64,000 bases of DNA from Shigella phage Sf25. Every line of letters begins with the position of its first letter. Position 1 is the stretch's first letter. Positions 30,930 to 60,042 of the stretch are shown piece by piece. The notes under the pieces are model-generated. The model saw only the letters and a program-made list of their open reading frames with translations, did not search any database and was not told the origin of the DNA. The DNA lies in the sequence record MF327009. One strand, given 5' to 3'. The position numbers and the translations under genes are program-made.

Positions 30930-31400
30930 TTAATCATGTTTCCACACCCCATCGGTATTTGACCAAAGTCGCTGATTATCTGATCCTCGCCACAGCTTTT
31001 TGGTCGGAAGATTTTTCTCATACTTCCCATCAATAATAACATCAACATATTTAAGCATTTCTAGTTGTTTAATATCTTCAAATTTATATCCTGTCCACAA
31101 CCAAATGCTTTTATTGGGATAAAGATTTTTTACTGTTTGAACAATGCAATGAACAACATCTCGGTTATCAGGATAGAGAGGGTCTCCTCCAGTTATAGTT
31201 AATCCTTCTATATAATCATTATTCAAACATTCAATTAATTGTTCTAGTGTTTCACCAGTGAATGGAACACCGTTTCTAGCGTTCCATGTTGATTTATTAT
31301 AACACCCTTCGCATTTATGCAAACAACCTGTAACGAAAAGAACGACCCTGCAACCAGGGCCATTCACAAAATCACAAGGATAAAATCTATCATAATTCAT
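30930..31400 (-). CDS. nrdG: anaerobic ribonucleotide reductase activase NrdG (radical SAM)
   Basis: 156 aa; cysteine cluster CLHKCEGC. Confidence 0.85.
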   Translation of the reverse strand: MNYDRFYPCDFVNGPGCRVVLFVTGCLHKCEGCYNKSTWNARNGVPFTGETLEQLIECLNNDYIEGLTITGGDPLYPDNRDVVHCIVQTVKNLYPNKSIWLWTGYKFEDIKQLEMLKYVDVIIDGKYEKNLPTKKLWRGSDNQRLWSNTDGVWKHD

Positions 31401-31654
31401 TGATGCTTAACCCTATGCATGATTTCTTTATTTTTACCGAGATTAAATCCGCGCTCGTTAGGATTTCCCAAATAACCAACACCCTTCGCATTTATGCAAA
31501 CAACCTGTAACGAAAAGAACGACCCTGCAACCAGGGCCATTCACAAAATCACAAGGATAAAATCTATCATAATTCATTGATGCTTAACCCTATGCATGAT
31601 TTCTTTATTTTTACCGAGATTAAATCCGCGCTCGTTAGGATTTCCCAAATAACC
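31301..31654. repeat. perfect tandem duplication, 2 x 177 bp, spanning the nrdD 3' end, intergenic region and nrdG 5' end
   Basis: 31301-31477 is identical to 31478-31654; leaves a nrdG 5' fragment (ATG at 31577) between intact nrdD and intact nrdG. Confidence 0.9.
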
Positions 31655-33391
31655 GCATGTTCTTCTTATAGTATTCATCTTTTTGGGATCAGTTTCTCCA
31701 CAAATAGAACAAACAAATCCGTTTTCAGTAGGAGTCATTTCATGGGTGCTTCCGCATGTAAAACATTTATCTACTGGCATATTAACACCAAAATAATCTA
31801 AATGTTGTGCAGCATAATCCCATACGGCCTCAAGACCTTTTAAGTTATTTTTCATATCAGGAAGTTCAACATAAGAAATGTGACCGCCTGTCGCAATGAA
31901 ATGATATGGGGCTTCGCGAGAAATCTTTTCAAACGGAGTAATATTTTCTTCTACTGAAACATGGAAACTGTTAGTGTACCAACCTTTATCGGTAACATCT
32001 TTTACGCTTCCATATTTTTCTGTATCGAGTTTACAGAAGCGATAGCACAGGTTTTCAGCGGGAGTAGAATACAAGCTAAAAGCAAATCCAGTTCTTTCAG
32101 TCCACTGTTTAAGATGAGCATTCATTTTAGTTAAAATTTCTCGTCCAATATCACGACCGACAAGAATATTCAATTCGTGAATACCAATGTATCCTAAAGA
32201 CACTGAACTTCTACCGTTTTTAAATAACTCAATTATGTCGTCATCAGGTTTAAGACGAACCCCGAATGCACCTTCTTGGTAAAGAATAGGAGCAACAGTA
32301 GCTTTAACTCCTTTTAAGGAACTAATTCTACACATCAAAGCTTCAAAACATAAATCCATTCGTTCATTGAATAATTCAGCAAATTTCTGTTCATTGAACT
32401 GTGTTCCAATATAAGAATCTAACGCGATGCGAGGAAGATTCAGTGTTACAACACCAAGATTATTACGTCCATCAAGAATTTCATTACCAGTCGAATCTTT
32501 CCATACGCTCAAGAAACTACGGCAACCCATTGGAGAAACAGGAACAGATGAACCAGTGATAGCTTTATTGTTCTTAGCTGAAATAATATCAGGATACATC
32601 CTTTTGCTTGCACACTCTAGAGCAAGCTGCTTAATATCATAGTTCGGATCGTCTTTGTAAAGATTAACGCCTTCTTCGACGAACATAACAAGCTTAGGAA
32701 AAATAGGAGTTATCCCATCACGACCGAGACCTTTAATACGATTTTTCAGAATTGCTTTCTGAATCATTCGTTCAGTCCAGTCAGTTCCCGTACCAAATGT
32801 AATTGTTACAAAAGGCGTTTGCCCGTTTGAACTAAAGAGAGTATTTACTTCATATTCATAAGCTTGAAATGCATCGTATACGTCTTTTTCTGTTTTAGAT
32901 TGAGCATAATTCAACGCATCAGCGATTTGCCATTTTTCTGCATCCTCAATATGTTTTGCATAGGTGCGTTTAACATAAGGAGAAAGTACTTTATCTACAT
33001 TCGCAAAAGTCGTTCCGCCGTATTGGTGAGAAGCAACCTGTGCAGTAATTTGTGCCATAATTGCAGTAGCAACGCCAATTGATTTAGGAGTTTCAATCTG
33101 TGCATTACCAAGCTTAAATCCGTTCTCAAGCATTCCTTTTAAATCTACTAAACAGCAATTAGTAAATGGAAGAGCAGGGGAATAATCAATATCGTGGAAA
33201 TGGATAATTCCGCTTTCATGTGCTTTCATAATAAAAGACGGGACCATATTTTTGGCAATGTGTTTAGACACAATACCAGCCATAAGGTCCCGTTGAGTTG
33301 GAAAAACACGAGAATCTTTATTAGCATTCTCGTTTAAAAGGTCTTTATTAGTTTTATGAATCAATCCTTCAATTTCTTTTTCAATTGTCAT
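31574..33391 (-). CDS. nrdD: anaerobic ribonucleoside-triphosphate reductase NrdD (intronless)
   Basis: 605 aa; glycyl-radical motif RRTCGYLG near the C-terminus; no intron interrupts the frame. Confidence 0.9.
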   Translation of the reverse strand: MTIEKEIEGLIHKTNKDLLNENANKDSRVFPTQRDLMAGIVSKHIAKNMVPSFIMKAHESGIIHFHDIDYSPALPFTNCCLVDLKGMLENGFKLGNAQIETPKSIGVATAIMAQITAQVASHQYGGTTFANVDKVLSPYVKRTYAKHIEDAEKWQIADALNYAQSKTEKDVYDAFQAYEYEVNTLFSSNGQTPFVTITFGTGTDWTERMIQKAILKNRIKGLGRDGITPIFPKLVMFVEEGVNLYKDDPNYDIKQLALECASKRMYPDIISAKNNKAITGSSVPVSPMGCRSFLSVWKDSTGNEILDGRNNLGVVTLNLPRIALDSYIGTQFNEQKFAELFNERMDLCFEALMCRISSLKGVKATVAPILYQEGAFGVRLKPDDDIIELFKNGRSSVSLGYIGIHELNILVGRDIGREILTKMNAHLKQWTERTGFAFSLYSTPAENLCYRFCKLDTEKYGSVKDVTDKGWYTNSFHVSVEENITPFEKISREAPYHFIATGGHISYVELPDMKNNLKGLEAVWDYAAQHLDYFGVNMPVDKCFTCGSTHEMTPTENGFVCSICGETDPKKMNTIRRTCGYLGNPNERGFNLGKNKEIMHRVKHQ

Positions 33392-50901: not shown

Positions 50902-51222
50902 TTATTCTTTAAATCTAATCAATTTATTCATAGACTTTGAAACTTCTGCACGAACCTCATGCAAGTTTTTAAGCTGTTCAAGACGCTGTTCATAGTAAGC
51001 AATTTCATCTTCTTCGAGACAGTCCTGTGAATCTTCTTTAAGATAATGTGCATAGTCCTGAAAAGCTTTACGGACTACTTCCTGGAAGTCATCAAGACTT
51101 TGAATTTTCTTAGGAGCGGCAGATACACGACGAGGTGCAGTATAATACTCATAACCAAACCCTGCACTTAATTGAGCCATTAGTATTTTTCCTCTGGTTG
51201 GAACACTGCACGACAAGCCCAC
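50902..51222 (-). CDS. hypothetical protein (106 aa)
   Basis: Minus-strand ORF. Confidence 0.4.
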
Positions 51223-51482
51223 ATACTGGCTTCTTTGAGTTTCGTTTTAGCAATAGTTAACTGATCGAGGCTTTCAGCATAATTCTTCGCGAGTTCATCG
51301 TCTTCACAGCTATCAAATGCTTCCCAAAATTCATCGTATAAAGCATCAAAGATAAGTCCTAAACGAACTTCAGCGTCTTTAATAGCATTTACTTTACCGA
51401 TTTTTTCGTCGGTATGTGGCTTATAACCTTTAATATCTTCAATCATATTTGACTTCCTCGCCAGTACATAAATCGTATTCAA
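51180..51482 (-). CDS. hypothetical protein (100 aa)
   Basis: Minus-strand ORF. Confidence 0.4.
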
Positions 51483-51660
51483 CTAAACGAATAGGTTCAT
51501 GAATGCCATATCCTTGAACAGAAATTTCTGTCGTAGGATAAATTCCATCAATATCACCCATATTCCAGGCTTCATTAAATTGCTGTTCGCCTGAATTACT
51601 AAACCACTCGGCGAAAGCATTTAGCACATCTTTAGAACCTTCAATAATTATCTTTGCCAT
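51439..51660 (-). CDS. hypothetical protein (73 aa)
   Basis: Minus-strand ORF. Confidence 0.35.
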   Translation of the reverse strand: MAKIIIEGSKDVLNAFAEWFSNSGEQQFNEAWNMGDIDGIYPTTEISVQGYGIHEPIRLVEYDLCTGEEVKYD

Positions 51661-52022
51661 TACAAACTCTCAGTAAAGGTACGAGCGATAACGTCGCGCT
51701 GCTGTTCCGGAGTCAGAGAGTTAAAGCGAACTGCATAACCAGATACACGGATGGTCAGCTGCGGATATTTTTCCGGATGCTTAACTGCATCTTCCAGAGT
51801 TTCACGACGCAGAACGTTAACGTTCAGGTGTTGACCACCTTCAATTTTAACTGTAGGTTGTGTTTCAATTTCAATTTCACGGGCATGCAAACCATAGAAA
51901 ATTTCTGGGTCTACAAAGGAGTCTTCTTTAAAAGTTTTAGAGACAATAATTCGTGCTTGAATACCATCTTCAAAATAAATAGTACCTTTGTGTGTGCCTT
52001 CAAGAATTTGATATGCTTTCAT
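51660..52022 (-). CDS. autonomous glycyl-radical cofactor (GrcA/YfiD-like)
   Basis: 120 aa; C-terminal half [56 protein letters not shown] carries the RVSGY glycyl-radical motif and closely resembles E. coli GrcA. Confidence 0.8.
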
Positions 52023-52029
52023 ATAAACC

Positions 52030-52410
52030 TCAATTAGAAAATAAATTTATCCAAGATTGTTCTTTAATTAAAAACGGCTCAGAATCATATGCCATTAAAC
52101 TCTGTGTGATTAGTCCTTTAAAAGGCCCATCAATAAATTCCATGGTAAAATATGGAATTTTATTCATTAATCTTGCATTAGGAGCAGTGCACAAAACTCT
52201 GCATCCTTCGAATACGCCTTTTTGTAATTTGTATTGCTTAGGATAAAATTCGCTCAAGACGTTGTTATTTGCCAAAATTTCAAAATGATTCACCAATTTA
52301 TTTTTAATAGTTTTTGGCGAAAAATAAAGATATTCGAAAAGTTGCGTGTCTGTCATCATTGCATTCCGATTATGAAAAACTGTGGACGAGTAATACCACC
52401 AATGCAACAT
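52030..52410 (-). CDS. hypothetical protein (126 aa)
   Basis: Minus-strand ORF. Confidence 0.4.
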
Positions 52411-52895
52411 TTACTATTGCAGCAGTGTTGCACAGTTTCAATATGAATATCGTAAATTTTATCCATATCAGGAGATTTAACAGGCTCATCGATTATATAC
52501 AAAATCCGTGAAAGCGATAAACCTCTGAACTTGCTTCCTTTATTACCGATAAAACTACGGACAGAATCGGTAAATAAACGGAATCGAATATCATCGCTAG
52601 AATAACGAGAAAATTCTTTTTTAATGTGGCCTGCAGAAATTTTAGCGTAAGCTGAAGTATTAGAAAGAACAATAACTGTTCCACCATCATACAGCCAATT
52701 AGCAGCAAAGTTAGTCACAGCAGTTGATTTACCGGATTGTCTGCCACCATCTAATCGAAGTGTGCAATACTGCTTGAGTAAGTCTTCAAATGGTGGGATA
52801 TAATCGTTTTTACAAATTTCTTCTACTCTAGCATCAGAATGGTGTGTAAAAGCATTCATCAGGGATAGATAAGGACCAGTTAAAAATGTTCTCAT
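52356..52895 (-). CDS. P-loop-containing protein (179 aa)
   Basis: Walker-A-like GGRQSGKST. Confidence 0.4.
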   Translation of the reverse strand: MRTFLTGPYLSLMNAFTHHSDARVEEICKNDYIPPFEDLLKQYCTLRLDGGRQSGKSTAVTNFAANWLYDGGTVIVLSNTSAYAKISAGHIKKEFSRYSSDDIRFRLFTDSVRSFIGNKGSKFRGLSLSRILYIIDEPVKSPDMDKIYDIHIETVQHCCNSKCCIGGITRPQFFIIGMQ

Positions 52896-53035: not shown

Positions 53036-53509
53036 TTATTTGAACGATTTAACGTACTGAATAGAACCTTTACTATTTACAAAGGCAATTTTACCATTTT
53101 TATTATACATTGTAGCAGTACGTTGATAGCCATAAGTTTGTTTACCAGATTGATAACCAACTAATGCAAAATTATCTTCACCCATTTTATTCTGTTTAGC
53201 GCGAATGCGTTCATGACCATGTGCCATAAGAACCTTAGCATCACCAGTTGCAATGGATCGACGAGTTTTTTCATCTTCAACTGTATTAACAAAGTCGTCA
53301 AATGAATCAAATTTAGCATGAGATTTATTATACAATTTTCCATCTACTGCATAATTATATCCCTGTACATCCATCTCAACTTCTGTACCATCATCCAATA
53401 CAGCAGTAATTTTCTGTCCTTTTTTAAATTTCAAAAGATCAGTAAAAGATTCAGCAATAATTTGAGAATTAATAGCTGCTTCAGTGATAAATTCTTGATA
53501 TGTTTTCAT
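53036..53509 (-). CDS. internal protein (IPII/IPIII family) with capsid-targeting leader
   Basis: N-terminus MKTYQEFITEAA (leader cleaved by the prohead protease in T4 IPs); position next to e. Confidence 0.6.
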   Translation of the reverse strand: MKTYQEFITEAAINSQIIAESFTDLLKFKKGQKITAVLDDGTEVEMDVQGYNYAVDGKLYNKSHAKFDSFDDFVNTVEDEKTRRSIATGDAKVLMAHGHERIRAKQNKMGEDNFALVGYQSGKQTYGYQRTATMYNKNGKIAFVNSKGSIQYVKSFK

Positions 53510-53525
53510 GTGTATCCTTTAATTT

Positions 53526-53843
53526 TTATTCTTTAGGGAAGTTTTTAGAATATGCATCATAAAGCTTATTTCCAATACGGCGGAAAACTCTAGCCGCAAA
53601 ACGATTTTCTGGGTTTTTAATCATGATTTGCATCATATAAGTACCCGCGTCAGAAAGAGCTTCTTCATAGTACCCGTTAATTTCTTTAAGAGTCCTACGT
53701 TTACCGCCAGGACCATCAACAGTGATTTTCCATTTACCTGTAGAAGTGCGACTTGGCGGCTCAACTTGTTCAATCCAGATATAACCGCCTTCTACACGTT
53801 GTCCTGCAGCAGATTCTGCAATAAATTCTTGATAGGTTTTCAT
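53526..53843 (-). CDS. internal protein (IPII/IPIII family) with capsid-targeting leader
   Basis: N-terminus MKTYQEFIAESAA; basic. Confidence 0.6.
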   Translation of the reverse strand: MKTYQEFIAESAAGQRVEGGYIWIEQVEPPSRTSTGKWKITVDGPGGKRRTLKEINGYYEEALSDAGTYMMQIMIKNPENRFAARVFRRIGNKLYDAYSKNFPKE

Positions 53844-59285: not shown

Positions 59286-59362
<77 letters not shown>

Positions 59363-59366
59363 TATT

Positions 59367-59441
59367 TGGCGGACATGCATGGATTCGAACCATGGACCAA
59401 TTGATTAACAGTCAACTGCTCTACCACTGAGCTACACATCC
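59367..59441 (-). tRNA. tRNA-Asn (anticodon GUU)
   Basis: Anticodon loop CUGUUAA (same as E. coli tRNA-Asn), T-arm GGTTCGAATCC, encoded CCA. Confidence 0.65.
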
Positions 59442-59445
59442 AAAT

Positions 59446-59532
59446 TGGTGGGGAGTGATGGAGTCGAACCACCCGAGTCGCAATGACAATGAATTTACAG
59501 TCCACACCGCTACCTCTACGGGATAACTCCCC
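59446..59532 (-). tRNA. tRNA-Tyr (anticodon GUA), class II with long variable arm
   Basis: Anticodon loop CUGUAAA and 13-nt variable arm, overall close to the E. coli tRNA-Tyr layout; encoded CCA. Confidence 0.6.
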
Positions 59533-59544
59533 TAATTCATAATT

Positions 59545-59619
59545 TGGTGGCCCTGGGTGGAATTGAACCACCATCTGGCGATTATGAGTCGCTTGCTTGA
59601 ACCTTCCAGCTACAGGGCC
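59545..59619 (-). tRNA. tRNA with CAU anticodon (Ile-lysidine type as in T4, or Met)
   Basis: Anticodon loop CUCAUAA; acceptor GGCCCTG/CAGGGCC; encoded CCA. Confidence 0.6.
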
Positions 59620-59620
59620 T

Positions 59621-59696
59621 TGGTGCTGATTGACGGAATCGAACCGCCGACCTTCTCATTACAAGTGAGTTGCTCTACCTACTGAGCTAAATCAGC
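59621..59696 (-). tRNA. tRNA-Thr (anticodon UGU)
   Basis: Anticodon loop CUUGUAA; T-arm GGTTCGATTCC; encoded CCA. Confidence 0.7.
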
Positions 59697-59701
59697 AAAA
59701 C

Positions 59702-59791
59702 TGGCGGAGGCGATAGGATTTGAACCTATGAGTCGCCGGAGCGACTGCCGGTTTTCAAGACCGGTGCATTAAACCACTCTGCCACGCCTCC
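59702..59791 (-). tRNA. tRNA-Ser (anticodon UGA), class II
   Basis: Anticodon loop CUUGAAA, long variable arm, encoded CCA. Confidence 0.7.
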
Positions 59792-59793
59792 AG

Positions 59794-59867
59794 TCTCCAT
59801 ACAAGGATTTGAACCTTGGACCTCCTGATCCCAAATCAGGCGCTCTACCAAACTGAGCTACACGGAG
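59794..59867 (-). tRNA. tRNA-Pro (anticodon UGG), CCA not encoded
   Basis: Anticodon loop UUUGGGA; abuts tRNA-Ser with a 2-nt spacer (dimeric precursor arrangement known in T4). Confidence 0.65.
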
Positions 59868-59877
59868 TAAATTAAAT

Positions 59878-59951
<74 letters not shown>

Positions 59952-59956
59952 AAATT

Positions 59957-60042
59957 TGGTGCGAGAAGTGGGACTCGAACCCACAAGGAAATCATTCCGC
60001 AGCATTTTAAGTGCTGTGCCAACTTGGCTAATTCCCAATTAT
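59957..60042 (-). pseudogene. chimeric tRNA remnant: 3' two-thirds of tRNA-Leu(UAA) fused to a 5' segment that looks like the start of tRNA-Gln
   Basis: Intact Leu anticodon arm (CUUAAAA), long variable arm, T-arm and acceptor 3' strand TTCTCGC-A-CCA, but the 5' side reads TTGGGAATTAGCCAAGTTGGCA, which cannot pair with the acceptor 3' strand and resembles a tRNA-Gln 5' end. Confidence 0.5.

Follow-up and report, generated by a model that had tools for sequence, protein, structure and literature searches.

An Escherichia coli grcA tract in the 3' half of vs.6, a phage glycyl-radical gene of Shigella phage Sf25

The 64,000-nt stretch of Shigella phage Sf25 DNA analyzed here (sequence record MF327009; hereafter, the window) carries a small gene whose product closely resembles GrcA (YfiD), a glycyl-radical protein of Escherichia coli. 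This locus raises the question of whether the phage acquired the gene from its host, and that of what such a protein would do during infection. The coding sequence, vs.6 (Y06I), spans 51660..52022 (-). It is an intact ORF of 120 codons with an ATG start and a TAA stop, and encodes a stand-alone glycyl-radical protein of the GrcA/YfiD type (120 aa, 13.8 kDa). A GAGG Shine-Dalgarno sequence at 52028..52031 (-), 7 nt upstream, overlaps the TGA stop of vs.7. At the other end, the TAA stop of vs.6 overlaps the ATG of vs.5 (TAATG; vs.5 ORF at 51439..51660 (-)); small genes are packed closely on the minus strand here. Scans for sigma-70 promoters and terminators around vs.6 returned no more sites than were found in shuffled sequence, and strict MotA-box and early-promoter patterns gave no match upstream of it. 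On the opposite strand, a 127-aa ORF spans all of vs.6 (51654-52037 (+)); it is most likely a functionless mirror ORF.

The gene order in the window (vs.8, vs.7, vs.6, vs.5, vs.4, vs.3, regB) is that of RB51 and T4, with the position of vs.6 between vs.7 and vs.5 in the vs cluster conserved, and the DNA is that of a T-even phage (Tequatrovirus). About 650 phage records contain the vs.6 ORF, annotated as vs.6 or GrcA, with 93-99% nucleotide identity. Its product matched phrog_1209 over its full length (PHROGs; E=5.4e-63, residues 1-120 of a 121-position profile). A search of T4 and its relatives, and of phages more generally, recovered homologs in 1,521 phage records from several families, including T4-like genera, T5-like phages, Aeromonas phages and jumbo phages. 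The T4 protein (Vs.6/Y06I, NP_049730.1) is also 120 aa long and is identical to that of Sf25 at 118/120 positions, the differences being T54 and R73 in Sf25 versus P54 and H73 in T4; its gene has the same neighbors, vs.8-vs.7-vs.6-vs.5-vs.4. The gene studied here is the long-known T4-type vs.6/Y06I, and neither it nor its function is new. Indeed, both the relationship to YfiD/GrcA and the biochemical activity of the protein have been on record since 2001, and RefSeq uses the name GrcA for it.

Several features of the surrounding region were also recorded. Unlike T4 and RB51, Sf25 lacks denV between vs.8 and the lysozyme gene e, and the interval holds internal-protein genes other than those of T4 in the form of two ORFs (53036-53843 (-)). 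Both begin with MKTYQEFI, which resembles an internal-protein capsid-targeting leader; one is Ip4-like (DUF7412 / phrog_3155, 'internal virion protein') and the other, of 105 aa, belongs to phrog_3966. The vs.8 gene (52356-52895 (-)) contains a Walker-A-like GGRQSGKST and weakly resembles the ATPase region of terminase large subunits (phrog_2, E=4e-6). Two genes downstream of vs.6, the vs.4 ORF (51180-51482 (-)) matched Pfam PF24729 (Acb2/Tad1 hairpin domain, E=1.4e-19), a family of cyclic-oligonucleotide sponges countering CBASS; in one Klebsiella phage record, the gene adjoining grcA is annotated 'anti-CBASS protein 2'. Finally, a tRNA cluster at 59286-60038 (-) comprises nine genes (Arg, Asn, Tyr, Met, Thr, Ser, Pro, Gly, Leu), a set that presumably differs from T4's eight, and its tRNA-Tyr region is a 90% match to an E. 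coli plasmid record.

The first-pass annotation described the C-terminal 60 residues of Vs.6 as almost identical to E. coli GrcA. On alignment the identity proved to be exact: residues 61-120 of Vs.6 and 68-127 of GrcA agree at 60/60 positions, RVSGYAVRF included (BLASTP, E=9e-53), and the Pfam Gly_radical domain (PF01228) was matched over residues 60-101 (E=2.2e-18). The C-terminus of pyruvate formate-lyase (PFL) was matched as well: the last 63 residues of Vs.6 align to PFL 697-759 (phmmer, E=4.8e-26), and over 51-63 residues, among them those of the glycine loop, approximately 76% are identical. Alignment to GrcA (YfiD) and PFL 697-759 predicts Gly95, encoded by the GGT codon at 51738..51740 (-), to be the radical-bearing glycine; it aligns with GrcA G102 and PFL G734, in a column that is invariant across 56 aligned homologs. 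The whole C-terminal domain is nearly invariant in these homologs, and the N-terminal half is of a phage type distinct from that of bacterial GrcA.

Vs.6 and E. coli GrcA are both stand-alone proteins of about 14 kDa that can be aligned from residue 22, but the N-terminal half of Vs.6 is diverged and 7 residues shorter. Their genomic settings also differ, vs.6 lying in an AT-rich phage operon and the host gene at the ung-grcA-eamB locus. The best NCBIfam match of Vs.6 was TIGR04365 (autonomous glycyl radical cofactor GrcA; residues 20-120). The score of 154.6 bits falls below the curated equivalog cut-off of 170, because of the divergence of the N-terminal half. Vs.6 thus represents a phage subfamily and not a strict bacterial GrcA equivalog (TIGR04365, IPR011140).

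Structural comparison was consistent with this picture of a shared C-terminal domain. Vs.6 matched the sequence of the YfiD NMR structure (PDB 6OWR; phmmer, E=4.6e-42), and its AlphaFold2 model was superposed by Foldseek on both 6OWR and PFL (2PFL, rmsd 2.3 Å). The C-terminal domain of PflB (2PFL/1H16, 697-759) has the same fold and would be the piece replaced by Vs.6; Vs.6, by contrast, exists as a polypeptide of its own and has an additional N-terminal domain. In the model, residues 1-50 form a small four-stranded beta domain (pLDDT 87-90), and the glycyl-radical half scores lower (pLDDT 46-79). A Foldseek search with the N-terminal half returned only faint KOW-like matches (E>0.1), and a KOW-like fold was set aside for this reason. 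In E. coli YfiD, NMR finds the N-terminal half to be disordered and residues 61-127 to be structured; the latter stand in for the part that PFL has lost, and residues 1-60 assist binding to cleaved PFL and installation of the radical. Since the diverged half of Vs.6 corresponds to this binding aid, the phage protein may differ from YfiD in affinity or partner.

Taken with the biochemistry of its orthologs, these data make it very probable that Vs.6 is the T-even phage copy of GrcA/YfiD, a spare part for PFL, encoded by an old phage gene whose 3' half recently recombined with E. coli DNA. A role as a spare radical domain had already been suggested in the first-pass annotation, and it gains support from the T4 ortholog. 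In PMC8683613, which cites Wagner 2001 (PMID 11444864; Knappe's group), T4 Y06I is reported to gain a glycyl radical through the host PFL-activase, and both E. coli YfiD and T4 Y06I to reactivate oxygen-cleaved PFL in vitro; the same source describes these two as still the sole validated PFL spare-part proteins. The PFL-rescue activity of Sf25 Vs.6 is predicted from this T4 ortholog, which is 98% identical. Nolan 2006 listed vs.6 among eleven unknown T4 ORFs common to all five T4-like genomes, with a guess at nucleotide metabolism. The phage-genomics literature missed the spare-part work on Y06I, and the searchable literature yielded no in vivo phenotype of vs.6.

The following sequence of events can be proposed. 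At low oxygen, host PFL would carry its radical on Gly734, where traces of O2 would cut the chain and leave a dead enzyme. Vs.6 would then bind the cleaved PFL, its C-terminal 60 residues (with the fold of PFL 697-759) standing in for the missing piece. PFL would become active again once the host activase PflA had put a new radical on Gly95 of Vs.6. T4 infection shuts off host gene expression. Host GrcA would therefore not be replenished, and by analogy with general T4 biology this may be why the phage encodes its own copy. The benefit might lie in the infection of gut bacteria under micro-oxic conditions.

The phage has another glycyl-radical protein that Vs.6 might serve. As the first-pass annotation had pointed out, the window encodes an anaerobic ribonucleotide reductase, nrdD (31574..33391 (-); Pfam NRDD 3.3e-171, Gly_radical 1.2e-25), and its radical-SAM activase, nrdG (30930..31400 (-); Fer4_12 1.4e-48, Radical_SAM 6e-7), which makes vs.6 its second glycyl-radical protein gene. 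Vs.6 could then be a spare radical domain for phage NrdD, activated by NrdG, instead of one for host PFL. The nucleotide-metabolism role guessed by Nolan 2006 would fit such a function, as would the gene arrangement of Salmonella jumbo phage 7t3, where nrdD and nrdG directly flank a vs.6 homolog. However, Vs.6 has no detectable similarity to the NrdD of the window (BLASTP E=2.7, with no meaningful alignment), its C-terminal domain is that of GrcA and, at about 76%, of PFL 697-759, and the T4 protein is reported to rescue PFL (PMC8683613). We consider a function in NrdD repair very improbable and rejected it, as sequence similarity to NrdD is absent; this absence argues for host PFL with PflA, and not NrdD with NrdG, as the likely partner of Vs.6. 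The arrangement in 7t3 (L093 621-983) has no counterpart in T4-like phages, and might reflect either activation by NrdG or simply a common 'anaerobic' module.

It is similarly unlikely that Vs.6 acts as a decoy or modulator which sequesters PFL-activase, or binds PFL through its divergent N-terminus, and so redirects host fermentation without repairing the enzyme. The phage-specific N-terminal half is conserved across phage families, and is predicted with high confidence to be a folded beta domain where that of YfiD is disordered by NMR, both of which speak for such a role. Against this, the functional domain remains the same, residue for residue, as that of the host's working spare part, and has even been renewed from host DNA (see below); the T4 ortholog, moreover, reportedly restores PFL activity (PMC8683613).

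We then considered the origin of the gene at the DNA level. The identity of the C-terminus to GrcA is by itself no proof of host origin, because this domain varies so little among all the homologs. The nucleotide sequence is more informative, and divides vs.6 into unequal parts. The 5' half (gene nt 1-178, approximately residues 1-59; 51845..52022 (-)) is of phage type. It is AT-rich (GC 32.6%, GC3 17%), 72-97% identical to the vs.6 genes of other T4-like phages and only 45% identical to E. coli grcA, being homologous to the N-terminal half of bacterial GrcA but far diverged from it. It is followed by a tract (gene nt 179-353; 51670..51844 (-)) encoding the structured glycyl-radical domain, in which 174/175 nt are those of E. 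coli grcA, the sole mismatch being at 51741. At the edge of the tract, GC rises from 32.6% to 48.6%. The last 10 nt of the gene (51660..51669 (-)) are phage-type again in the alignment (GAG AGT TTG TAA, versus GAA AGC CTG TAA in the host). The DNA match of vs.6 to E. coli grcA is limited to gene nt 179-363, where it amounts to 97.8%.

The third codon positions of the tract were compared with those of other phages. In Sf25, 56/57 are the same as in E. coli grcA; the copies in Karamvirus, Slopekvirus and Pseudotevenvirus share only 26-34/57, though they encode 51-59 of the same 60 residues (Fisher p=2e-7). It is this identity at synonymous sites, and not that of the protein, that shows a recent host origin of the tract. 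The tract is specifically Escherichia-like, with 97.8% identity for E. coli as against 91.8% for Citrobacter and 82.8% for Salmonella, and corresponds to grcA (97.8%) and not to pflB or tdcE (about 76%). All 5426/5426 complete E. coli genomes match the tract, at 95-99%. In a megablast comparison of the 64-kb window with E. coli, no other protein-coding stretch gave a match; the tRNA cluster did. E. coli grcA is uniform along its length in comparison with other enterobacteria, and therefore the direction of transfer is from host to phage. Judged from the sequences, the 3' half of vs.6 is E. coli grcA DNA recombined into an older phage gene. The first-pass view of vs.6 as a host-derived gene thus holds for the 175-nt tract, and not for the gene as a whole, which is a member of an old phage family (phrog_1209) whose N-terminal half is phage-specific.

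The tract is not peculiar to Sf25. It was found at 95% identity or more in 638 phage records, T4 (98.4% to E. coli grcA) and T2 among them, and its start always lies at grcA nt 199/200. It is also present, always as the E. coli type, in Tequatroviruses whose isolation hosts were Yersinia, Hafnia, Salmonella and Citrobacter. It is hardly credible that the tract is a mere passenger without selected function, be it a piece of host DNA or an artefact of assembly. A match of 174/175 nt and a host-like GC content are what a passenger would show, but the tract is in frame with a common left edge in all the independent records that carry it, the ORF is intact, its family is maintained across about 1,500 phage records, and a parallel tract of Klebsiella type exists in Klebsiella phages.

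This second tract was characterized in Klebsiella phage KPV15 (Jiaodavirus). Its vs.6 is the same gene at the same position, with a homologous phage-type 5' half (72.5% nucleotide identity to the window; GC 36%) and the mosaic edges seen in Sf25, but a 3' tract of 56% GC (GC3 60%). Among 81 bacterial loci, the best grcA match to this tract reached 90%. Metagenomes were therefore scanned with a 35-mer from it to find the bacterial donor. The scan led to 27 bacterial metagenome contigs of about 57% GC, on which GrcA is exactly GRCA_KLEP7, the protein of the K. pneumoniae complex. Moreover, a Jiaodavirus-like phage contig from a metagenome (L101) shares a 158-nt exact run with K. pneumoniae grcA (gene nt 181-338; GC 58%), and not with E. 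coli grcA, and 106 phage records match K. pneumoniae grcA at 95-99%. In the KPV15 RefSeq record (L085 801-1162), vs.6 is frameshifted into two annotated ORFs and the near-identical contig L101 is intact; the frameshift may be a sequencing error or mark a recent pseudogene.

For other bacterial donors, no phage record matched Salmonella grcA at 90% or more, and a single one matched Enterobacter grcA at 90-95%. For the copies in Karamvirus, Slopekvirus, Pseudotevenvirus, Krischvirus, T5-like, Aeromonas and jumbo phages, the highest identity to any of the bacterial grcA genes compared was 75-85%, and for this reason we do not claim conversion in these lineages. Klebsiella phage M1 (Slopekvirus; L089 660-1022) has the Klebsiella-type TLLDAVEH in its radical domain, with DNA only 81% identical to K. 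pneumoniae grcA. This could be the result of an old conversion or of convergent selection toward a host match.

With an E. coli tract in T-even phages and a separate K. pneumoniae tract in Jiaodavirus, the 3' half of vs.6 has thus been overwritten by host DNA at least twice, from different hosts. In both cases, the tract edges coincide with a block of phage-host similarity high enough for recombination, and this block is the structured domain. The tracts probably arose when short patches of the phage gene recombined homologously with the chromosome of the infected host. We lean toward a broader interpretation, in which vs.6 is a recurrent, host-specific hotspot of gene conversion, the grcA of the current host (E. 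coli for Tequatrovirus/Mosigvirus, K. pneumoniae for Jiaodavirus) replacing the structured half. The searchable literature, whose coverage excluded key older work, held no mention of the vs.6/grcA DNA mosaic, and a recurrent host-matched conversion tract is possibly unreported.

Altogether, vs.6 illustrates how misleading protein-level identity alone can be as an argument for host origin. As an evolutionary side-finding, it is modest, but it offers a clean, datable example of short-patch recombination from host to phage in a lytic phage. If our reading is correct, the tract would be direct natural evidence that T-even phages, which are strictly lytic and degrade host DNA, recombine with the host chromosome, and it could indicate, from within the genome, which host a phage has recently been associated with.
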